Positions 8,735-46,100 of a stretch of DNA of 47,865 nt are shown piece after piece. How positions within the stretch are numbered: the first letter of the stretch is position 1; every line of letters begins with the position of its first letter. Position numbers and translations under genes: made by a program. The stretch lies in sequence record OQ791282; one strand, written 5' to 3'. Source of the DNA: Shigella phage Henu10. Below the pieces are notes generated by a model. It saw only the letters and a list, made by a program, of their open reading frames with translations, was not told the DNA's origin and ran no database searches.

Positions 8735-9454
8735 ATGAAAGCGTTAATCAAAATTACAGAACAAAACGGAAAACAAGCCGTGTCAGCTAGAGAGTTACAC
8801 TCTTTTTTAGAGATAAAAGATAAATTCACAGATTGGATAAAGCGAATGTTTGAGTATGGATTTATTGAAAACATTGATTATCAGATTTTATCGGATTTTT
8901 CCGAAAAAATAGGCAGAGGTCGTCCATCGGTTGATTACGCCCTTACACTAGATTGTGCAAAAGAGATTTCAATGTTACAGAGAAGCGAAAAAGGCAAACA
9001 AGCGAGGCGTTACTTCATAGAGTGCGAAAAGAAACTCCGCACAGGGGCTTACGCTTTACCACAGACCTTTGCAGAAGCATTGAAATTAGCCGCCCAACAA
9101 GCAGAGCGTATAGAATTGCAACAGGCAGAACTCAAAAAACAAGCCCCGAAAGTGGCTTATTATGAAGAAGTATTGCAAAGCGAAAGCACTTATAATACCA
9201 ATCAAATAGCAAAAGAGTTAGGTATGAGTGCCATTACGCTTAACAAAAAGTTACAAGATTTAAAAGTTCAGTATCGGCAAGGTGGCACTTGGCTACTCTA
9301 CCACAAATATCAAAATAAAGGCTATACGAAAACTAAAACGCATACCTATACCGATACTAAAGGGGCAACCCAAACCAGTATGCAGACGGTATGGACTGAA
9401 AAAGGGCGTTTATTTATACACGAGGCTTTATCTAAACGCTTACAAAGTGCCTGA
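8735..9454 (+). CDS. AntA/AntB-family phage antirepressor
   Basis: N-terminus MKALIKITEQNGKQAVSARELHSFLEIKDKFTDWIKRMFEYGFIENIDYQ matches the AntA N-terminal domain; paralogue at 22775..23524. Confidence 0.65.
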   Translation: MKALIKITEQNGKQAVSARELHSFLEIKDKFTDWIKRMFEYGFIENIDYQILSDFSEKIGRGRPSVDYALTLDCAKEISMLQRSEKGKQARRYFIECEKKLRTGAYALPQTFAEALKLAAQQAERIELQQAELKKQAPKVAYYEEVLQSESTYNTNQIAKELGMSAITLNKKLQDLKVQYRQGGTWLLYHKYQNKGYTKTKTHTYTDTKGATQTSMQTVWTEKGRLFIHEALSKRLQSA

Positions 9455-14621: not shown

Positions 14622-14645
14622 GATTTTAAAAGCGTGTTTTAAAAT
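14622..14645. repeat. 25-bp dyad-symmetric motif, copy 2 (GATTTTAAAAGCGTGTTTTAAAAT)
   Basis: Same arms and core (opposite core orientation) as 6240..6264; abuts ATG 14646. Confidence 0.6.
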
Positions 14646-14912
14646 ATGAACGAGATTTTACACAAGAGAATAGCCGATATGACCACCTTTGAAATGATGG
14701 AGAGTGCTTATCTTATAGAGAAGGCAAGATGTATCACAATGTCTATTGATGATTTTGCCAAGACTATGGGGTGGGACAATCGGAAAGTTTATAAACTTTT
14801 AAAAGGCAAAATACTTCCTGAAAAAATAATAAGGGGAGGTTATGATTCTTTAAGGCAACGCAAAAGACCCGTATTTATAACGGAAGAGGTGTTAAAATGG
14901 ATTAAAAACTAA
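14646..14912 (+). CDS. HTH DNA-binding protein (excisionase/HTH_17-like)
   Basis: 88 aa; plus-strand ORF within the head module, TATCTTTG box at 14539..14546. Confidence 0.4.
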   Translation: MNEILHKRIADMTTFEMMESAYLIEKARCITMSIDDFAKTMGWDNRKVYKLLKGKILPEKIIRGGYDSLRQRKRPVFITEEVLKWIKN

Positions 14913-18171: not shown

Positions 18172-18263
18172 AATGATATATTAGTGATAATCACAAAATT
18201 AACTATACCAAAAACCGCTAACAATAGCAATAGGGGAGGATTTGGCAGAAAAACTAAATTTTC

Positions 18264-18284
18264 GATTTTAAAAGCGTGTTTTAT
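18264..18284. repeat. Dyad-symmetric motif, copy 3 (GATTTTAAAAGCGTGTTTTAT)
   Basis: Directly downstream of terL stop and about 90 bp upstream of portal start. Confidence 0.55.
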
Positions 18285-19583
18285 TTACAAAATACTCGCA
18301 ATCTGCTGTAAATCGTTTTGGATAGGTTCGTCAAGTTCTATAAAGCCGTAACGAAGAGCATCTATCAAGTGGTTATGTTTGTCAATAGGGATACCAGCTT
18401 TTTTATCGTTCCAAGCGTAATTGCGGAGTTCCTTTTTGAGGTTATGGCTATTCTCGGTTACAATAATTTGATATTCTAACATTTTTAAAATAGAGGCGGA
18501 CACGATGCCAGGCTTTTTCTTTGTTGGTTTTATGTTTAATCCTTTTTTACGCAAGTCCTCAATTAGTCGTGGCTCAGCACTATCGCCTACTATTAAATCA
18601 TTTTCTCGGTCTATAAGGCTTTTATTTAGCAGATACAAATCATCTGTTGAGAGTTGATTGTTTCCGTAATATTTCTCATCAGCATAGATAATTTTTCTTT
18701 TGTGGTCAATAGCTACCTTAACTAATGTATCTGGGTCTATGCTAAATCCGTAATCTTGACCATAGCAGTAAGGAATAGATGTGTCAAAGTCGCCTTCCTT
18801 CCAATTAGTAAAGATAACGCCCTCTGCCATATCAGACCACCTGCCTATGATTTTTTGAGCGTACTTGCTCTTATTGAATAGGGCTTGGTCTAATTTACCG
18901 TTTATAGTACACTGCTCTATACTTTCCTGTTTTATACGCTCTATATTAGACAAGAATTGTTCTGACAAGTTCTCTATGTTGTCTAAATAGGTCGTGTGGA
19001 TATGTAGGACATCGGGGTGGGTGCTTATCTGTACATCTACACCGTCAATCTGTACTATCTTATGGGTATTTTCAATATATTTTTTATAAATAAAATGGTC
19101 GGAGTCGGTAGGGTTGAGTATCAGTATAACTCTTAATTGTTTATTTTTCTGACGAATGGATAGGATTAACTTTTCGTAATCTTCCTCGTTTTCCCACTCT
19201 TCCATTTCATCGCCCACGAAGGTGGTTATCCCCTGTATGGATTTAAGGTTTGCTGTTTGGTTTCCTGACGAAGTTTTTATCCCTCTAAATAAAATACTAC
19301 TTCCTGAAAATTTATTTAGTATTTCATTGTTTGTTACTGTAAAATACTCCTGCACGCCCTCTTTTTCTATTTTTTCCTCAAACTCTGGAATGATAGAAAT
19401 ACGAGCGGAGGTCATCGTGTAACGGCTAAAGAGCATCTTATGCCCAGCTTCAAAAGATAATCGCTCTACAAAGGTAGTCGCATTATAGGATTTTGCAGAC
19501 CCTCTACCTCCAGTAAGGAGTATAATAAACTTGTCTTTGTTGGTGTAAAGAGGGTTATATACTTCTTGTGTTTTTATTGGCAT
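18285..19583 (-). CDS. terL: Terminase large subunit
   Basis: 432 aa; Walker A LLTGGRGSAKS near N-terminus; nuclease-type C-terminal half; follows small subunit. Confidence 0.8.
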   Translation of the reverse strand: MPIKTQEVYNPLYTNKDKFIILLTGGRGSAKSYNATTFVERLSFEAGHKMLFSRYTMTSARISIIPEFEEKIEKEGVQEYFTVTNNEILNKFSGSSILFRGIKTSSGNQTANLKSIQGITTFVGDEMEEWENEEDYEKLILSIRQKNKQLRVILILNPTDSDHFIYKKYIENTHKIVQIDGVDVQISTHPDVLHIHTTYLDNIENLSEQFLSNIERIKQESIEQCTINGKLDQALFNKSKYAQKIIGRWSDMAEGVIFTNWKEGDFDTSIPYCYGQDYGFSIDPDTLVKVAIDHKRKIIYADEKYYGNNQLSTDDLYLLNKSLIDRENDLIVGDSAEPRLIEDLRKKGLNIKPTKKKPGIVSASILKMLEYQIIVTENSHNLKKELRNYAWNDKKAGIPIDKHNHLIDALRYGFIELDEPIQNDLQQIASIL

Positions 19584-22372: not shown

Positions 22373-22396
22373 GATTTTAAAACACGCTTTTAAATT
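22373..22396. repeat. Dyad-symmetric motif, copy 4 (GATTTTAAAACACGCTTTTAAATT)
   Basis: Immediately downstream of the 22398..22712 stop; a degenerate half-copy at 22336..22352. Confidence 0.55.
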
Positions 22397-22397
22397 A

Positions 22398-22774: not shown

Positions 22775-23524
22775 TTAGGCACTTTGTAGGTGTTTGAGAA
22801 ATTTGTTTACAAAATAAACCTGCCCTTTGCCTGTTACCTTTGTGGTTATGGTGGTATGCATAACGCCACCGCTACCTGAACGAGTGCCTTTTTTGAGTTC
22901 AAAAATACCCTGTTCTACATATTTTTGATTGGGTATGTTGTAGCGTTCGCCTTTACGCCCCAAATAGCCATTTTCTCTTAGGTATTTGAACAATCGCCGT
23001 TCGCCTATCTCGTAACCGTTTTGAGTAATTACTTTGGCTAACTCGCCAATAAGACACGAGGTCTTACTACCCATTACCGCCTCTGTAAATAATACCTTTG
23101 GGGCTTGTGCTTCAAGTTGAGCTTGTTGCTCTTGATTTTGCAAGAGTAATACCTCTTTTTCTTCTTCTTTCTTGATGAGTTCAAGTAAGGCTTCTTTGTA
23201 GGTGGTGGGTAGGGTGGTTTTAAGTTTCTTCTCACACTCTATGAAGTAACGCCTCGCTTGTTTGCCTTTGTCGCTTCTCTGTAACATTGAAATCTCTTTT
23301 GCACAATCTAGCGTAAGGGCGTAATTTATTAAGGGGCGACCGCCGTTAGGTTTTTCGGAAAAATCCGATAAACTCTGATAGTCAATGTTTTCAATAAATC
23401 CATACTCAAACATTCGCTTTATCCAATCTGCGAATTTATCTTTTATCTCTAAAAAAGAGTGTAACTCTCTAGCTGACACGGCTTGTTTGCCATTTTGTTC
23501 TGTAATTTTGATTAACGCTTTCAT
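22775..23524 (-). CDS. AntA/AntB-family phage antirepressor (paralogue of 8735..9454)
   Basis: First ~100 aa nearly identical to the 8735 product; C-terminal half diverged. Confidence 0.65.
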   Translation of the reverse strand: MKALIKITEQNGKQAVSARELHSFLEIKDKFADWIKRMFEYGFIENIDYQSLSDFSEKPNGGRPLINYALTLDCAKEISMLQRSDKGKQARRYFIECEKKLKTTLPTTYKEALLELIKKEEEKEVLLLQNQEQQAQLEAQAPKVLFTEAVMGSKTSCLIGELAKVITQNGYEIGERRLFKYLRENGYLGRKGERYNIPNQKYVEQGIFELKKGTRSGSGGVMHTTITTKVTGKGQVYFVNKFLKHLQSA

Positions 23525-23526
23525 AG

Positions 23527-23847
23527 TTAGGCAGATTTAGTGTTAAGCAAAATATCATCTGTCAACAATTCTACATCTTCAAAAAAATCTTTAGGTAATC
23601 GGTTGTGCATCGCCCAAAGCAAAGAGGCTAAGTTGGCTACTCTTTGTTCAGCATTTTGGTAATACCCTTTGCGAATTTCGCCTGTAAGCATATCCATTTG
23701 CTCTGTAACTAGGTAAAATAGATTGTCTTGGTCTACACCAAAACAAGAGTTAAACTCAGATAGGCGTTTTGCTCTATCAATGGTTTTTTGGTTTTGCACC
23801 TCGCTACTGTTGTTTGCGGTTGGTGCGGTTGTTTGATGGTTTAACAT
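23527..23847 (-). CDS. Hypothetical protein (first gene of second antirepressor cassette)
   Basis: N-terminus MLNHQTTAPTANNSSEVQ paralogous to 8340..8732. Confidence 0.5.
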   Translation of the reverse strand: MLNHQTTAPTANNSSEVQNQKTIDRAKRLSEFNSCFGVDQDNLFYLVTEQMDMLTGEIRKGYYQNAEQRVANLASLLWAMHNRLPKDFFEDVELLTDDILLNTKSA

Positions 23848-24030
23848 AATAATTAAAAATAAAATAGGCGTAAGTAGGTGCTGTTAAACCATCGTGTTCA
23901 CGAAAGTGTATAATATTACTATTATACGACACCCTTACGCCTGTAAGTTTATATTTTATTTTTATTGAGTATACAACTACTCACGATGGTTTAACACTGC
24001 AAATATACGACTATTTTTTTAACCACCAAA
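23835..24030 (-). promoter_or_regulatory. Promoter plus structured 5' leader, paralogous copy
   Basis: -33 TTTG and -7 TATATTTG (24007..24000) on minus strand; arm1 GTTAAACCATCGTG, arm2 CACGATGGTTTAAC and start-codon copy GTTAAACCATC co-vary relative to copy 1; the stem CGTGAGTAG / CTACTTACG has a G-U pair only in the sense RNA. Confidence 0.6.
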
Positions 24031-24119
24031 TTTTTTGTAGAAAATTTTTTATTTTTTTCTTTGATGCATAAAAAAAAGCCCCTACAATTGGGGCATTTTT
24101 ATTACAATATATAATCGTT

Positions 24120-24944
24120 CTATTTTTTCTTTTTTTGCTTATCCTCCTTGAGCATTTTTTTATATCCTGCCTTAAGTTCTTTTCTTACATCAGGTAATTG
24201 TTTTTCCTGAGGAAGATTTTCAGGATTTTTACCAACATTCTTTTTGATAATTTCTCTTACCTCTTTGCCAACTTCGTAATGTGTAGCTTCAAGGTTATGC
24301 TGTCCTTGTATCCCCTTACTTTTAATTCGTTCCTCTGTCTGTGTAACACGGAATAAATTAGCTGCCAATTCAGTTCTACCCATGCTATCCATCAGCTTTT
24401 CTTTTTTCACATTGCGTTTATTAGCCAACTCCCAATTTCTCATATTGTACATTCCTAAATATCCCGCATTTGTGAACTTCGCATAATCTTGAACTTTTGC
24501 GTGTTTCAGAGTAGAATTAAGAGATTTATTCCCTTCCGTTAATTCTTCTCTAATTAAAAGCCTATCTATTTCCTGATGATTTTCTATATACAATTCAAAT
24601 TTTCGTGTTTGCTGAGCAAAATATGCTTGTGCTTGTGCAACCTCTATTTTTTTGGGGTCTCCATTCATTACAACCATATAACACGCAAAACGAGTCAGTT
24701 TGAAATCTTGAAAGGTGTTATTATCTATTGTTCTTTGTTCAGGTAAAATATTATCATAGTAAGGAATATTCAATGAAACAAATGCCTTAGTAGCTCTATC
24801 TAAAACTTTTTGAAATGATTTCATATTAGGATACGCCAACATCCTCATTAAGTCTGATGCCCACCAATAAGTTATACCATTTTCTTGCTTAAAATCTTCA
24901 AAAGAAAGTCCGTCAGCATCTGTATTATGAACTAATTCACTCAT
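24120..24944 (-). CDS. Bro-N / DinD-like domain protein, putative
   Basis: N-terminal ITYWWASDLMRMLAY resembles Bro-N/DinD-type N-terminal domains; basic C-terminal tail. Confidence 0.45.
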   Translation of the reverse strand: MSELVHNTDADGLSFEDFKQENGITYWWASDLMRMLAYPNMKSFQKVLDRATKAFVSLNIPYYDNILPEQRTIDNNTFQDFKLTRFACYMVVMNGDPKKIEVAQAQAYFAQQTRKFELYIENHQEIDRLLIREELTEGNKSLNSTLKHAKVQDYAKFTNAGYLGMYNMRNWELANKRNVKKEKLMDSMGRTELAANLFRVTQTEERIKSKGIQGQHNLEATHYEVGKEVREIIKKNVGKNPENLPQEKQLPDVRKELKAGYKKMLKEDKQKKKK

Positions 24945-25044
24945 ATTTTATCTATACTAAATTTATACAAAAATACAAAAAAAAGTAGACTTTCTTATGT
25001 TTTGCTTTTAAAAATTCGTTTTCACACACCTTTAAAAAAACACA

Positions 25045-25075
25045 AAACCCATTGAAAATCAATGGGTTTATTTTT
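25045..25075. terminator. Bidirectional terminator hairpin
   Basis: Perfect 11-bp stem AAACCCATTGA / TCAATGGGTTT with A-run upstream and T-run downstream. Confidence 0.55.
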
Positions 25076-25078
25076 GAG

Positions 25079-25181
25079 GTTGCGAACTATCACAAAGATA
25101 GTAAATTTTTGAAAGCAATTCACAACGCTATTGGAGTTGCTTGTCTTTCAAGTTCCGTTGCGAACCATCACAAAGATAGTA
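25079..25181. repeat. Two 25-bp direct repeats GTTGCGAAC(T/C)ATCACAAAGATAGTA
   Basis: Copies at 25079..25103 and 25157..25181; each carries TATCTTTG on the minus strand. Confidence 0.5.
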
Positions 25182-25183
25182 TT

Positions 25184-25513
25184 TTATTTCACATGAGAAG
25201 AGTTAAACCATAAACTCTTCTCTTGATATTGTGCCTTTATTCTCCCTATTTTTATTTCTTCCACATTTAAAGTTGAATTTTTTGGGACGATAAACATTTT
25301 CCCATCCATTATCATTTGACCGAACGCGTTACCATCTTTAGCATTTGAAATCCTTAACATTTCATCAAAATCAGACTCGGTAATCGTTCCCACTGTTTCT
25401 TGTGTAGTATGAACATCATCTCCCACCTTGAAAAATTCTGATTTTTTACCACAAGATATAAAAGCTCCCAATATTAACAAAGACAAGGCAAAAAACAATA
25501 ACGCTTTTTTCAT
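25184..25513 (-). CDS. Lipoprotein
   Basis: MKKALLFFALSLLILGAFISC signal/lipobox; promoter and 5'UTR identical to that of 6335..7027. Confidence 0.55.
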   Translation of the reverse strand: MKKALLFFALSLLILGAFISCGKKSEFFKVGDDVHTTQETVGTITESDFDEMLRISNAKDGNAFGQMIMDGKMFIVPKNSTLNVEEIKIGRIKAQYQEKSLWFNSSHVK

Positions 25514-25602
25514 AGTTTTAAATTTTAAATTAGTTATGTCGCAAAGATATAAAAAGTTATCAAGAAAAAGAGAGGCGGTAGCCCCTCTGTAATGCTTAGT
25601 GG

Positions 25603-31845: not shown

Positions 31846-32622
31846 TTAAACGCTCCAAATTCCGTAAGTCTTCTTCTTTTCTGTGGCTTTTTGAGAGGTT
31901 GTATTTTTGTACTTGTCTAGGGTTACGGGACGGCTAAAAAATTCAGGTGTTAGGTATTTATAGCCTTGTTCCATATGGTATTTGTCCTTTACCGCATTTT
32001 CGATAGCCTCCAGTATATCCTCTTTTGTGTAGCCTTCTTTCAATCTAGCCTTGTACTTTCTCTTTATTTGGTCGTTTATCGTTTTAAACTTGCGTTTTGT
32101 TTTGTCGCTTATGAAGTTTAATAGCTTTTCAAAGTCTATATCGTTATTGGGCTTCGCTTTTCCCTCTTCTTCCAAATCCGAAAGAGACCCTTTTGGTTCT
32201 TTTTCTAAAAGAACATTTAGTTTAGTTTTATTTAGTTTATTGTTAGTATCAGAAACTGTATCAAGAACCGTATCAGAAACCGTGTCAATATCTGTATCAG
32301 AAACTGTATCAAGAACCGTGTCAGCTGTTGATACAGTTGGAAAAACATATTTAGTTTGTCCGTCTATTCCCTTGCTTCTTTTTTGCGGTGTTTTAAAGTC
32401 AATAAGTCCTAATTGCATCAATCTATTTCTAGCATCTCTAACAGTATTAACTGACATTCCAAGTGCGATACTTAAATGTCTGTCGGAATGCCCAAAGGGT
32501 TGCTTCCAGCCCAACGAATTACAAGTATGCAACAGATAGAAGTATAATCTTGTGTCGTTAGGGCTGATGCAACGCTCTAAGTTGCATTGCCAAAATTTGT
32601 TTATGAGAACTATATAATTCAT
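31846..32622 (-). CDS. Replication initiation protein (N-terminal HTH, repeat linker, conserved phage C-terminal domain)
   Basis: Peptide repeats DTVLDTVSDTDIDTVSDTVLDTVSDT encoded by iteron-like DNA repeats; C-terminal region resembles conserved phage replication-protein C-terminal domains. Confidence 0.5.
   Translation of the reverse strand: MNYIVLINKFWQCNLERCISPNDTRLYFYLLHTCNSLGWKQPFGHSDRHLSIALGMSVNTVRDARNRLMQLGLIDFKTPQKRSKGIDGQTKYVFPTVSTADTVLDTVSDTDIDTVSDTVLDTVSDTNNKLNKTKLNVLLEKEPKGSLSDLEEEGKAKPNNDIDFEKLLNFISDKTKRKFKTINDQIKRKYKARLKEGYTKEDILEAIENAVKDKYHMEQGYKYLTPEFFSRPVTLDKYKNTTSQKATEKKKTYGIWSV
32246..32336. repeat. Iteron-like direct repeats (putative origin) inside replication gene
   Basis: GTATCAGAAACTGTATCAAGAACCGT at 32246..32271 and 32294..32319, plus further GTATCA-type units and an inverted TGATAC. 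Confidence 0.5.
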
Positions 32623-36684: not shown

Positions 36685-37443
36685 ATGAAAAAGATAATAC
36701 AGAAAAGTATTAAAAATAATTTAAAGGATAGATTAAATACTGTTTATAACTATCTGAAAAAAACGACAGAATTTACAACGCAAACACTTTTAGCTGAGAA
36801 GATAGGATATACACGCTCTAATTTTTCAGCTGCATTAAATGGAGACGAGAGGTATCTAACAGAAGGTGTTGTTGATAAAATAGTGGAGGCTTTTCCGCAG
36901 TTAAATAGAGAGTGGTTCATAACGGGCAAAGGCGAAATGCTAAAGTCTTCAGAAGAAACTCCGATAAAAGGGGAGGGGGTAAAAGTAATTTTAGACGCAG
37001 AGATAAAAAGAACCCCATCGGAAGGCACACCTTATTATGATGTTGATTTTGCCGGAGGTTGGAACTCTGATGAGATTTTTTCACTTGGGAATCCATCATT
37101 TTATATCCAAAGTCCAGATTTTAGAAGGGCAGAGTTTGCTACTAATCTCGTGGGAAACTCTATATCAAAGATAATTCCCAGTGGAGCCATTGTAGGATTT
37201 AGACAAGTAGAGGATTGGAAAACTTATTTCCCAACAAATGAGCTGTATGGTATCATTACTAAAAACGAAATGAGAACCGTAAAAAGGGTAAAAAGAAAGA
37301 AAGGAGACTCAAATACACTTGTGTTGATTCCTGACCCATTAGAGGTTCATTCAGGATATGAGCCTGAGGAGTTGCCTATTGATTTTGTTTCAAAGATGTT
37401 TCAAGTGGTTGCTTGGGCAATGTTTGAGAGAGTAGCAATGTAA
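36685..37443 (+). CDS. CI-like repressor (HTH plus S24 LexA-like peptidase domain)
   Basis: N-terminal HTH (TQTLLAEKIGYTRSNFSAALNG); C-terminal GNSISKIIPSGAIVGF with downstream Lys-rich segment resembles the S24 Ser-Lys dyad region. Confidence 0.65.
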   Translation: MKKIIQKSIKNNLKDRLNTVYNYLKKTTEFTTQTLLAEKIGYTRSNFSAALNGDERYLTEGVVDKIVEAFPQLNREWFITGKGEMLKSSEETPIKGEGVKVILDAEIKRTPSEGTPYYDVDFAGGWNSDEIFSLGNPSFYIQSPDFRRAEFATNLVGNSISKIIPSGAIVGFRQVEDWKTYFPTNELYGIITKNEMRTVKRVKRKKGDSNTLVLIPDPLEVHSGYEPEELPIDFVSKMFQVVAWAMFERVAM

Positions 37444-38228: not shown

Positions 38229-39545
38229 ATGGCAAAAAATGGTCAAAAAGTTTCCCTCTCTCTCCGCAAAAAGGAGTTAAGCCGTTGTAAATCAACGGTT
38301 TTGCTTTATAAAACAGGTCTTAAAGCACAAAAGTGCACAAATTCCATTTCCGCTACCCCTAATGTCCAACACTTTAATTTGGACGAAATGGAAAATTATT
38401 GGACTAATCCCAAAGTGAAACATTACCCCTTAGAAACAGGTAAGGATTGGTATGTTTGGTTTCGATTTAACGGAGGTAATCCCATTAGAGTAAAGCAAGG
38501 GCTTAATCAGATTCCAGAATTTGAGGAAAGGCTGCAAGAGGCTTATGCAATGGCAGATGTCATAAGAGAAAGGCTAGAGAGTGGTTGGGTTCCTCAAAGT
38601 GCTAAAGTGAGGGTAAAAAGGATAAATCTTATAGATGCCGTTATATTTGGCTTTGAGGAAAAAAAGAAAACTCTTTCAAAAAACAGCATCGATAATTTTA
38701 GAAGCTCTGTCAATTTCTTTATTGAAGCGGTCAAGGAGTTGCAATATCACAGAATGCAGGTGTCTAGTTTTGAAAGGATACAAGCTAAAGAGGTTCTGGA
38801 ACATCTAAAAAATGAGAAAGGCTGGTCTAACAAGACTTATAATAAACATCTTGGTTTTTTAAGGTCTGTTTTTCACGAAATACTTGACGCTGACTACATA
38901 AAAAGTAATCCATTTAGAGACATTAGAAATCTAAAGGTTCTAAAAAAAGAAGCAAATGTACCTCCAACAAATGAGGAGATGAAAGCTATATCTAACGCTT
39001 TGCAGGATTACTGTTTTGGGTTCTATGTCTTTTGTTCCACTATCTATTATTGCGGTATCCGTCCTGCGGAGTTGGTGCAAATGAAAGTATCAATGCTAGA
39101 TTTGGATAACGAGCTAATCAATTTACCTGCTGAAATAACAAAAACAGATGCTGATAGGGTAGTACCCATAAGCGAAAACTTGAAAAGTCTATTTTCAAAA
39201 TTTAACCTTTCTAATCCTCATAATTATTTGTTTGGTACTTGCGTGCCGAATGGAGGAAGGCACGGTATTAAAAATAGATATTTTGAGCCTAATGAGTTCA
39301 AAGTAAAGGAAGACACAGCTAATAAGCTATGGCGTAGGCTGATAAAAGACGGCTTAGGCATTGACAAAAATATGTACTCCTTGAAGCACAAAGGAGCAGA
39401 CGATAAAATATTAGCAGGAATGCCTATTGAAACCATACAGGCTATATTTGGACACTCTACTCAAAAAATGACCGAGCGATATGCTAGGATAATGAAATTG
39501 CAAAGATTTGAAGAGGCTAAAAAAATAAAGTTGCCTTCTTTTTAG
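38229..39545 (+). CDS. int: Tyrosine integrase (true start may be ATG 38388)
   Basis: C-terminal catalytic region ...GHSTQKMTERYARI (H-x-x-x-T-x-x-Y); a terminator-like hairpin and a 16-bp direct repeat lie within the first 160 nt of the track ORF. Confidence 0.8.
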   Translation: MAKNGQKVSLSLRKKELSRCKSTVLLYKTGLKAQKCTNSISATPNVQHFNLDEMENYWTNPKVKHYPLETGKDWYVWFRFNGGNPIRVKQGLNQIPEFEERLQEAYAMADVIRERLESGWVPQSAKVRVKRINLIDAVIFGFEEKKKTLSKNSIDNFRSSVNFFIEAVKELQYHRMQVSSFERIQAKEVLEHLKNEKGWSNKTYNKHLGFLRSVFHEILDADYIKSNPFRDIRNLKVLKKEANVPPTNEEMKAISNALQDYCFGFYVFCSTIYYCGIRPAELVQMKVSMLDLDNELINLPAEITKTDADRVVPISENLKSLFSKFNLSNPHNYLFGTCVPNGGRHGIKNRYFEPNEFKVKEDTANKLWRRLIKDGLGIDKNMYSLKHKGADDKILAGMPIETIQAIFGHSTQKMTERYARIMKLQRFEEAKKIKLPSF

Positions 39546-43113: not shown

Positions 43114-46100
43114 TTATGAATAATTTGTTATTATACCTTTTCTAATGGTAAGCCATACTCCCCCCAAAAATAATTCTCCTGTATATCCTACCTCTCCACC
43201 CACACGAATATCTCCCGATTCTATATTTAAGGCAGTAGCATACTGTCCGTCAGCCCTTATAGATAGGGCGTTGTAGGGCGTATAATTGTTCACATCACGC
43301 CCCCAGAGCCGAAGTATATTGTTTTTATTTCCGTTTAAAATACTATCATCATTATTGATGAGAGCATAGCTTTCTCTCCCAGATGAAAGACTTTTTTTAT
43401 ATGAAAGTATGCTTCCAGATGACTTTATTTCTAAATAGTCGTTTGGGTCTGCTATTCCTTGCCCCGAAAGTGTATTTCCGCTAATATTGAACCTTGCTAT
43501 TTTACCACCTGTAATTTCCATATCAGAGCCATAAACTTTCCCATTATCCAGCACCCTAAATGGTGCATTATGTTTATTGGCGTAGTTCGCTCCTGCTCCA
43601 AATCTCACGCTCATTGCTCCCTCGTCGGTAATACCACTAATAAAAGCGTTTTGATTAGCTTGGTTGCTTCCGACTGACATCAAGTTAGCCATCATCAACC
43701 CGCCTTGAATAGAAGTGAAGTTGTCGGTCTTGGTCTTCACATCAGCCAAAGAGGTTTGCATATTAGCTATTCCTTGTTGAAGGTTGGCAAATAGTGCGTC
43801 CAAGTCTTCGGGGGCGGGTGTCCAATCGGTTGCTTTATTGCCTTTTTCAAGTTTTACATCTTTAAACCAAACTGTATTGTTGCTAAACGCTCTGAGTATA
43901 AAGATGAAATAGGCTGTGTCAGGCTGTGTCCTTATTGTGAAGTTCACATATTTATATTCTGAATTAACAGGGAACTCCCTGTAATTATCAGAATAAACAG
44001 TCGTATGAGTGCCGTTCTCTTTCATTTCTAATGCGTAGAAAAAAGCTGAACCTATCCCCTTAACAAAGGCTGATATTGTATATTCTGTGTTTTTCTCACA
44101 TTTTATATTTTGGTCTATTTGATTGTAAACTTGTCCATCTATCGAGGTTATTTTAACGCTCCTTTCATTAGGTAGAAACTCTGCTTGTGGATACCCTTTG
44201 CTCCAATGCTCTCCACCGTTTTTAAATTCAGTATTGCGAGCTAGGTTTCGACCACCAACAATTACTCCATTGATAGCATTATTAAGTTGAGATGTTGTTG
44301 CACCTCCACCATTACTCACTATTGCCGAAGCGTTTAGTAACTCTGTTTTGATATAGCCTCCCTGCACAATTGTGTTGCCGAGCATTGCTCTTTCTACGGA
44401 GTTCTGCCACGCCATTGTGCCGAGATTATTAAATTTGCTAGTAACCTCGTTTCTATGAGTATTTACCAACGCTTGAGCGTGTGCCTTAGCTTCTTCTAAC
44501 TTCGCCTTAGCTTCATTTATTCTCGCTTGTTCTTCGGCGGTCACTATACTATCTGCGTGAGCCTCTGCTTGCAACCTCGCCAAATTAGCTTTAGCTTCCG
44601 CCACAGCAATAGCTGATTGTTCAGCCTTATCAGCTTTTCCATCTGCGTAGGCTTTTATTAGCGTTTCCTTTAAGTTATCTTGTGCCTGTGCATACTCTTT
44701 AGCTAATTGCAGTTTCTGCTGGGCATCTGCAATCGCTCGTTGTTCTTCTTTGCTAACCTTTCCGTCAGCGTACGCTTCCGCCTGCGTCTTGGCTAAATTA
44801 GCCTGTGCCTGTGCGTAAGCATTAGAGGCTTGTGTTGCCTGTTGCTCGGCTCTTGTAATATCTGATTGTATATCTTCAGGAGCAGGTGTCCAATCAGTAG
44901 CTTTATTTCCTTTTTCTAACTTCCAATTTCTGTGGTAAATTTTTGCAGTTGCAGGAACACTTCCGTCATTATTCCATATCGCATATATGCCCATAAAACG
45001 AGTGTTGTTATATGGAGAATTTTCTATCTTCGTCCAAACATTCGCAGGACAAAATTTTCTATTATTCTCCCCAAAACCTATATACATATCGTGAGTGGGC
45101 TTTACTTCCATTGATTGGATAGTTTCCTGCCCTGTGAGGTCTTCCGTGAAAACACTTATATTATTGAGTAAATGAAAATAGGTAGAAATATAAAAATTAC
45201 CATTATTCACACTTGTTCCAGAAATCCATTTCACTCCATTTTCCTCTCCCTGTGTTAAGTCCCATGTTCTTCCGTTGTTGTTGAACATTCCGTATCCTTT
45301 TTGAGAACCCCTAAGGTAATTTCTACCTCCTACACTTACCGCATCCACCGCTTGTTGTATAGCACTCCCAACTTCCGCATAACCATTACCGCTTTTGAAC
45401 TTAATCGTTCCTGCTATTTCCCCACTATCCAAATCAAAATAGGTTTGTCCGTTGAGCGATTTAATTCTCCCTGCTGTTATTTGCCCTCCGTGCATAAATA
45501 CATTACCGTACATTGCTTCTGCTTCTCGTTTACTGTCTTTTGGTGTGTAGAGTAAGTAACACAAGAAGTAATAATAATCTGACCGACTATCAAACCTTAT
45601 CTGCTCGGTGGTGATATACCACATCGCATTACTACTTCCTCTTGAACATTTCGCATAAACGTAATAAACCTGATTCAATAAATCATTACGGCTGTATGGT
45701 AGTAAATTCCACTCTCTAATATCGTCTTCTAAAGAAAAATGAACCAACTTCCCACCACTAATAAATGTTCTTGCAGGATTACCCTCTATATTAGGATTCA
45801 GACTTATATTTTCTAATGCAAATTGTTGGCTCTTTGCTCCAACCGAAAGCATATTGGCTTCTATACTCTCTGGCTTGATATGTGTAGAGTCAAAGTAACC
45901 CTCTACATCAAAGACACTTTCTCGAAGCTCTTGCAGGTTACGATAACCGTTCAAGTAATTTCGTCGGTTAATTTGTTCCTGCGTTTTTATAACCGTTTTA
46001 GTATCTTTAATATCGGTAAGCAGACTTGCTACAAAGCTGATTTCGTAAGTGTCCGCAATGCCTATTTTGTAATTATATTCATCTAATAAGTCCCTCGTAA

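Follow-up and report, generated by a model that had tools for sequence, protein, structure and literature searches.

A putative one-spacer type II-C mini-CRISPR array in a RAP44-like phage of Riemerella anatipestifer

Downstream of a lipoprotein gene, the phage genome analysed here carries what is, judging from its sequence, almost certainly a phage-borne type II-C mini-CRISPR array with one spacer. The window, i.e. the whole stretch of DNA that was analysed (47,865 nt), is by sequence comparison a RAP44/PT15-like siphovirus of Riemerella anatipestifer, a duck pathogen; RAP44/PT15-like Riemerella phages are temperate. We consider it probable that this virus-borne array uses the Cas9 of the host against competing phages. 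We observed the identity of its repeat and leader to those of the host, its array architecture, its capacity to pair with the host tracrRNA, a match of its spacer to a target, and an expansion of the array in phage CRP19.

The pattern GTTGCGAACYATCACAAAGATAGTA occurs in exactly two copies in the window, at 25079-25103 and 25157-25181 (plus strand). No chance matches are expected, and none were found in 100 shuffles. Both 25-mers contain TATCTTTG on the minus strand and lie between a lipoprotein gene and a hairpin with an 11-bp stem, as a preliminary description of this DNA had reported. The same description called the two copies tandem 25-bp repeats, but they are not arranged head-to-tail: they are 78 nt apart, equal to a 48-nt repeat plus a 30-nt spacer. 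Neither are they equal, since the one at 25079 extends over 48 nt (25079-25126), while the one at 25157 is a 25-nt stub. According to the sequence match, the 25-mers are the 3′ halves of the type II-C CRISPR repeat of the host, flanking a 30-nt spacer. The features of the locus are:

25184..25513, minus strand: lipoprotein gene (109 aa, phrog_25409), N-terminus MKKALLFFALSLLILGAFISC, a lipoprotein-type signal with Cys
25181..25157, minus strand: truncated CRISPR repeat (stub), 3′ 25 nt only, TACTATCTTTGTGATGGTTCGCAAC, with the -7 box TATCTTTG kept at 25178..25171
25156..25127, minus strand: spacer of 30 nt, in crRNA sense GGAACTTGAAAGACAAGCAACTCCAATAGC, of the same length as host spacers
25126..25079, minus strand: full CRISPR repeat of 48 nt, GTTGTGAATTGCTTTCAAAAATTTACTATCTTTGTGATAGTTCGCAAC, with the tracrRNA-pairing segment at 25125..25110 and the -7 box TATCTTTG at 25100..25093
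25078..25030, minus strand: leader-like segment with terminator hairpin and U-tract, a copy of the host CRISPR1 leader where it adjoins the repeat
24120..24944, minus strand: Bro-N domain gene, 'DNA-damage-inducible protein D' in phage records

The stub starts 2 nt past the stop codon of the lipoprotein gene. It is without the tracrRNA-pairing 5′ part of the repeat, and matches the 3′-terminal 25 nt of the host CRISPR1 repeat at 24 of 25 positions. Elsewhere in the window, the repeat was not found except for a remnant near 7050, and there was no second anti-repeat or repeat module. A tblastn search of the window with host Cas9, Cas1 and Cas2 gave no significant match, and the window contained no tracrRNA either. 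As cas genes are absent and the tracr-pairing module occurs only once, the locus is expected to yield a single crRNA. Scanning IMG/VR with the 3′ 23-mer of the repeat revealed no other contig. Scans of the window for tRNAs and Rfam families gave no match, and a reading of GTTCGCAAC as an att site or tRNA fragment was abandoned after the host repeat had been identified.

All genes flanking the array are on the minus strand. The array lies within the 3′ untranslated region of the lipoprotein gene, which has its own -7 box at 25549..25542, the same TATCTTTG as in the repeats. At the other end, the Bro-N/DinD gene is outside the array and marks the lower boundary of the locus; its own -7 box (24975..24968) is located below the terminator hairpin. 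For the proteins near the array, i.e. the lipoprotein and three small ORFs, no sequence relatives were found among solved structures, anti-CRISPR proteins included. Another hairpin, with a 10-bp stem (GAGAAGAGTT/AACTCTTCTC), lies at 25195-25222, inside the 3′ end of the lipoprotein ORF.

Over 5 kb around the locus, the window is 100% identical to RAP44, PT03, PT15, PT33, CRP2 and CRP12. The 239-nt intergenic region with the array was present at the same position in 10 phages that were isolated independently, and none of their records annotates the array. Eight Riemerella phage records, among those checked, are without it. Around the locus, phages with the array hardly differ from one another, so that the conservation of the array is little guide to selection.

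Several other features of the window concern its wider organization. It has the same coordinates around the locus as PT15 (44,128-nt record), and its last 3.7 kb show a 98% match to the tail-protein region of CRP12. Two paralogous gene modules are inverted relative to each other (6291-9036 and 23223-25557), with an identity of up to 91% over 334 nt. Each module comprises an AntA/KilAC antirepressor, a phrog_29185-like gene and a lipoprotein gene; the two lipoprotein genes share promoter and signal peptide but differ in the body, and both lipoprotein cassettes end in a CRISPR-leader-derived terminator. A perfect palindrome, GATTTTAAAACACGCTTTTAAAATC, within a conserved block of ~67 nt, is present at 6240-6264, 14622-14646 (minus strand) and 22373-22397, with a weaker version at ~18261-18292. 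The block thus occupies four intergenic regions at module boundaries (0 expected by chance), and could be a family of phage operators, promoters or terminators. Furthermore, a GTATCAGAAACT-like repeat of 12 nt, in about 6 tandem copies, was found at 32246-32324, inside ORF 31846-32622 (minus strand), and three related segments of ~250-450 nt with 94-97% identity at 1-253, 43804-44254 and 47541-47840.

We compared the phage repeat GTTGTGAATTGCTTTCAAAAATTTACTATCTTTGTGATAGTTCGCAAC with the repeat of the type II-C CRISPR1 array of the host, GTTGTGAATTGCTTTCAATTTTTACTATCTTTGTGATAGTTCGCAAC. They agree at every position of the first 18 and the last 24 nt; the phage repeat departs from the host consensus in its 5-6-nt centre alone. 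This published consensus is present in the two host genomes found with the 23-mer and in further lineages. The phage repeat measures 48 nt and has the centre AAATTT, whereas host repeats measure 46-47 nt and have TTTTT, TTTTC or AATT as their centre. Among 24 published consensus sequences and seven genomes examined, no host repeat had the phage-type centre. The lineage with AATT instead of TTTTT, L044 (GCA_009663465.1), is one R. anatipestifer lineage with a 46-nt CRISPR1 repeat, and indicates that a variable linker joins the tracr-pairing part to the -7 box. The notion of a strictly phage-specific 48-nt repeat centre is weakened, since host lineages vary there too.

The similarity extends beyond the repeat. 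About 45 nt adjoining the phage repeat match the host leader, including the hairpin and the junction (phage ...GGGTTTATTTTTGAG/GTTGCGAAC). Next to cas2, the host leader after the repeat reads CTCAAAAAATAAACCCATTGTTTTTCAATGGGTTTTGCGTTTTT, and its phage counterpart reads CTCAAAAATAAACCCATTGATTTTCAATGGGTTTTGTGTTTTT. The palindrome of this hairpin has been described before in the 107-bp CRISPR1 leader of the host (Zhu 2016). Spacers are 30 nt long in the phage and 29-30 nt in the host. The CRISPR1 arrays of the host have 9-38 repeats beside the cas genes, in the order tracrRNA-cas9-cas1-cas2-leader-array, whereas the phage copy has one spacer and lies between phage genes. Host cas9-cas1-cas2 and the tracrRNA were found in five genomes. 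The best explanation of these sequence matches would be that the array was copied from the leader-proximal end of host CRISPR1, which holds the newest spacers, together with the leader-repeat junction.

The part of the repeat that interacts with the tracrRNA is complete. The published anti-repeat TGAAAGCAATTCACAA, located upstream of cas9 in five host genomes, is complementary to nt 2-17 of the repeat, and these positions are fully conserved in the phage. The predicted energy of the 17-bp duplex with the host tracrRNA is -24.5 kcal/mol for the phage repeat versus -24.6 kcal/mol for the host repeat; no stable duplex was predicted between the stub and the 5′ part of the host tracrRNA. In the tracrRNA gene of the host, a -7 box TAAATTTG is located immediately upstream of the 16-nt anti-repeat, and is conserved in five R. 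anatipestifer genomes (L041, 2888-2903, minus strand, and L042-L045). With this box directly before the anti-repeat, the crRNA:tracrRNA duplex would have only ~17 bp for a 47-nt repeat.

The host system is active in adaptation, which has been demonstrated experimentally, with new spacers entering at the leader end (He 2018), and host arrays contain many spacers against RAP44-type phages (Zhu 2016). Spacers of host strain RCAD1090 (L008) match the window at 38387-38416, 4024-4053 and 36925-36954 with 0, 1 and 3 mismatches, respectively, and the protospacer at 4024 is within the tape-measure gene. When the phage loci (the window, L009 and L004) were taken together, two of their three best protospacers had a C at position +6 of the 3′ flank, which is consistent with the reverse complement of a GWATTN PAM.

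The PAM 5′-GWATTN was reported as 'upstream' when reading from the leader (He 2018), which for Cas9 places the crRNA sense on the opposite strand. This orientation agrees with the reported transcription of type II-C arrays, including those of Flavobacteriia, whose repeats have their own promoter and are transcribed towards the leader end. In crRNA sense (minus strand), the phage repeat starts with GTTGTG, like other Cas9 repeats. The housekeeping promoter of Bacteroidota consists of a -7 element TAnnTTTG and a -33 element TTTG about 19 nt upstream. A TAnnTTTG box is present in the 3′ half of the repeat on the minus strand in both copies, and a -33 TTG at a spacing of 17-21 nt is absent from both; in total, the AT-rich phage genome contains 89 matches to TAnnTTTG. 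By analogy with other type II-C arrays, the boxes in the repeats are plausible promoters. No promoter was found in the host array with an E. coli-type predictor (Zhu 2016). Read-through from the lipoprotein gene is predicted as a second route of expression, because no terminator lies between its stop codon and the array. Transcription in either direction would be stopped by the hairpin at 25045-25069 (AAACCCATTGATTTTCAATGGGTTT), which has an 11-bp stem, a 3-nt loop and T-runs on both strands. Two pairs of its stem show compensatory double changes across six homologues. The preliminary description had proposed a bidirectional terminator here, and the hairpin is indeed predicted to be a good intrinsic terminator on both strands.

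Outside CRISPR arrays, the only match of the spacer was to the tape-measure gene of Riemerella phage GDF21 (27 of 30 nt; E=4e-3 database-wide, 50,697 phage records). The identical target site is present in the RAP44-like prophage L009 (IMG/VR), which was also the sole result of a seed scan of IMG/VR with the spacer. The three mismatches are at 5′ positions 5, 10 and 12, which are PAM-distal, and the 18 PAM-proximal nt match perfectly. The target is flanked by TTATTG, one base off the experimentally derived PAM GWATTN and one base from observed PAMs such as GTATTG, with the most conserved G missing. The site is located in the variable middle of the tape-measure protein, in a segment that is absent from the carrier phage, and no further homologue of the GDF21 segment with the site was found in the phage collection. 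The window itself contains no protospacer, and a perfect protospacer was found neither in the phage collection nor in IMG/VR or the metagenomes. A metagenome scan with the 18-nt seed returned 30 matches, all attributable to chance, with 5-12 mismatches in the remainder of the spacer. Present-day cleavage of the GDF21 site is only a possibility, given the three mismatches and the missing most conserved PAM base.

GDF21 alone among the phages has both the array and the target site. Over 239 nt it differs from the window at a single position, which is the PAM-proximal base of the spacer. This change of the seed base is suggestive of avoidance of self-cleavage, although it is a single substitution in a multi-contig draft assembly.

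In CRP19, the array has expanded at the same site. Four copies with a strict 78-nt period enclose three spacers, i.e. three units of the 48-nt repeat GTTGCGAACTATCACAAAGATAGTAAATTTTTGAAAGCAATTCACAAC plus a 30-nt unique segment are followed by the 25-nt stub. The extra spacer TATTTGAGCCGTTATATCACGCAGAACAAA is present twice, on the leader side (L002, 2166-2195 and 2244-2273), and all added repeats have the phage-type centre. The leader-side place of the new spacer corresponds to the known polarity of acquisition. Judging from these sequences, the added units fit a direct insertion into the phage array. Alternatively, they could have been obtained by recombination with an unsampled host lineage, and a host with a 48-nt repeat could have been the donor. 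The extra spacer has no target in the phage collection, IMG/VR or the metagenomes. It weakly matches Fic-family genes on alphaproteobacterial plasmids (28/31) and in frame encodes YLSRYITQNK; no Fic-like ORF was found in the loci examined. None of the spacers in the supplement of Zhu 2016 equals either phage spacer, and the PAM-proximal 14 nt of either spacer (<=2 mismatches) had no match in the 8.5 kb host cas locus, including the cas9/tracrRNA promoter region.

Decayed copies of the array were found as well. The preliminary description had noticed a related half-element and hairpin after the paralogous lipoprotein gene, and we recovered both (ATAGTTCGCAAC and the hairpin AAACCCACTAAAAATAGTGGGTTT, at 7050-7094). 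The features at this second site are:

6335-7027, plus strand: Ig-like lipoprotein gene, paralogue of 25184-25513 with the same N-terminus
7036..7061, plus strand: degenerate partial repeat AACTATATTTAGCAATAGTTCGCAAC of the 25-nt type, identical to the repeat end over its final 12 nt and carrying a mutated -7 box
7062..7110, plus strand: second leader-like segment with a hairpin at 7071-7094, following the Ig-like lipoprotein gene

The same repeat remnant occurs in PJO17, GRNRAP2 and prophage L009, and in all array-less relatives, and CRP6 has an 18-nt remnant at the main locus. As far as its sequence tells, the element at 7036-7110 has the form expected after loss of a 78-nt unit by recombination between two 25-mers. 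The solitary remnant at 7036-7061 is without the half that interacts with Cas9 and the tracrRNA, and would therefore be unable to mimic a crRNA.

From these features we infer transcription of the array, loading of its crRNA into Cas9, and interference. Transcription would start at the -7 box of the stub, read through from the lipoprotein gene, or both, and the minus-strand transcript would contain the 30-nt spacer and the full repeat and stop at the leader hairpin. Nucleotides 2-17 of the repeat would then pair with the host tracrRNA, and the crRNA would load the host Cas9. Both host components would be needed, as the phage is without cas genes and tracrRNA. The target of the guide would be the tape-measure gene of GDF21-type Riemerella phages, in its variable middle, an allele not found in the carrier, and competing phages would be cut in cells that the carrier has infected or lysogenised. 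The stub would provide a promoter only and hence no spurious crRNA, while the promoter inside the full repeat would yield no more than a short transcript ending in the leader. More tentatively, the phage array might itself be competent for adaptation. Host Cas1-Cas2 could insert new spacers into the phage genome because the host leader-repeat junction is kept, as the CRP19 expansion suggests. The array would then be an evolving, outsourced immune memory against rivals, and carriers would mutate their own spacer or protospacer against self-cleavage, as the GDF21 seed change suggests.

Other explanations assign the locus a different role or none. As an RNA decoy, i.e. an anti-CRISPR by mimicry, an over-produced harmless crRNA would titrate the host tracrRNA and Cas9, diluting the host crRNAs directed against the phage, and the content of the spacer would be irrelevant. 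The phage is indeed under Cas9 pressure, as indicated by the many host spacers against RAP44-type phages and the perfect match at 38387; moreover, the full repeat has kept the exact tracrRNA-pairing module, no perfect target of the spacer turned up in phage records, IMG/VR or metagenomes, and repeat-based RNA anti-CRISPRs are an established phenomenon in other CRISPR types. However, the described Racrs are solitary repeats, whereas this locus is a canonical repeat-spacer unit with a spacer matching a related phage, and the Racr paper (Camara-Wilpert et al. 2023) contains no type II-C example. A single crRNA gene would also require very high expression to compete with 15-40 self-promoted host units. 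We regard the decoy as unlikely to be the function of the locus; it is nonetheless compatible with the mini-array reading, and the two roles are not exclusive. It is less likely still that the locus is an inert relic, a fragment of a host array gained by illegitimate or repeat-mediated recombination, of which only the leader hairpin is used, as a terminator after lipoprotein 'moron' genes, while repeat and spacer are decaying passengers. Decay certainly occurs, as seen from the 12-25-nt remnant with hairpin at 7036-7094 (which all array-less phages share), the 18-nt remnant in CRP6, the eight array-less Riemerella records among those checked, and a hairpin kept by compensatory changes while the repeat was lost. 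Yet all functional modules (promoter box, 30-nt spacer, tracr-pairing segment and leader junction) are intact wherever the array is present, CRP19 gained units rather than losing them, and the substitution in GDF21 falls exactly on a seed base.

Two regulatory explanations are both highly improbable. The preliminary description had suggested tandem phage promoters with an attenuator, or a binding-site array for a phage regulator, controlling neighbouring phage genes. Its boxes fit TAnnTTTG, lie upstream of a hairpin, and stand as plausible repeat-embedded II-C promoters; the small palindrome ACTATCacaaaGATAGT might, in principle, be bound by a dimer. However, the identity to the host CRISPR repeat fully explains boxes and palindrome alike and leaves the regulator array without support, and apart from the remnant at 7050 the repeat occurs nowhere else in the phage. 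The attenuator has to be given up, since the Bro-N/DinD gene further downstream is preceded by a -7 box of its own, below the terminator. The other explanation is a regulatory guide or an antisense mimic: the crRNA might guide Cas9 to a host promoter, for instance that of cas9/tracrRNA, for binding without cleavage, or a plus-strand transcript from the TATTTTTG box (25069-25076) might carry the anti-repeat TGAAAGCAATTCACAA and sponge the repeats of the host pre-crRNA. There are reports of phage RNAs by which Cas effectors are redirected onto their own promoters, but neither spacer has a seed match in the 8.5 kb host cas locus. The TATTTTTG box abuts the repeat, and together with the plus-strand hairpin at 25195-25222 it could bound an antisense RNA containing the anti-repeat; against this, the neighbouring genes are all on the minus strand, and TAnnTTTG is frequent in this AT-rich genome.

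RAP44-like phages are under development against R. anatipestifer, a multidrug-resistant duck pathogen. If the mini-array reading is correct, lysogens could exclude other therapeutic phages by means of a phage crRNA that arms the host Cas9, and this would affect the design of phage cocktails. It would also provide a compact natural case of a bacteriophage exploiting Cas9 with only a repeat, a spacer, a leader and a half repeat that bears a promoter. The expansion in CRP19 and the seed change in GDF21 offer a handle on direct spacer acquisition by phage arrays and on selection acting on carriers. The locus is missing from the annotated features of all deposited genomes. Our search of the literature on Riemerella phages and CRISPR found no mention of the array. 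Faure et al. reportedly surveyed viral mini-arrays in 2019; that survey was outside our search and possibly lists RAP44.

By analogy, the locus best fits the known class of viral mini-arrays in conflicts between viruses, with its function inferred. The mini-arrays of the Saccharolobus portogloboviruses SPV1 and SPV2 (Medvedeva et al. 2019) likewise have one or few spacers and repeats matching those of the host, without viral cas genes, and their spacers match a closely related virus of the same host; the phage spacer matches such a virus at 27 of 30 positions, beside a flank one base off the PAM. Another trait in common with known mini-arrays is that the carrier is a temperate phage. In contrast to these arrays, the phage locus is of type II-C and would also need the host tracrRNA. 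One of its flanks is a half repeat with only a putative promoter, its repeat departs from that of the host in the 5-6-nt centre, it has ~45 nt of host-like leader beside the repeat, and it has grown in one relative. Leaders of bacteriophage mini-arrays are reported to be different from those of the host, precluding direct adaptation, and host-identical leaders are reported only in archaeal viruses. Against these reports, the host-like leader found here is unusual.

With Racrs (Camara-Wilpert et al. 2023), the locus shares that it is a phage copy of a host repeat with its own putative promoter and predicted terminator, and possibly a competitor for Cas components. Racrs are solitary repeats without a spacer from class 1 and V-A systems, whereas our locus is a repeat-spacer unit of a Cas9 system; where an RNA anti-CRISPR would have a solitary repeat, a spacer and a second, partial repeat are present. 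Features that the locus has in common with host CRISPR1 are both ends of the repeat, the palindrome in the leader, the junction between leader and repeat, a spacer length of 30 nt, and the TATCTTTG box within the repeat. As in the II-C arrays of Neisseria meningitidis, Campylobacter jejuni, Flavobacterium columnare and F. psychrophilum, in which a promoter in the 3′ part of the repeat drives the next spacer toward the leader or variable end, the putative promoters of the phage locus lie in the repeat and point to the leader; here, however, the motif is the Bacteroidota -7 box TAnnTTTG, predicted in Riemerella.
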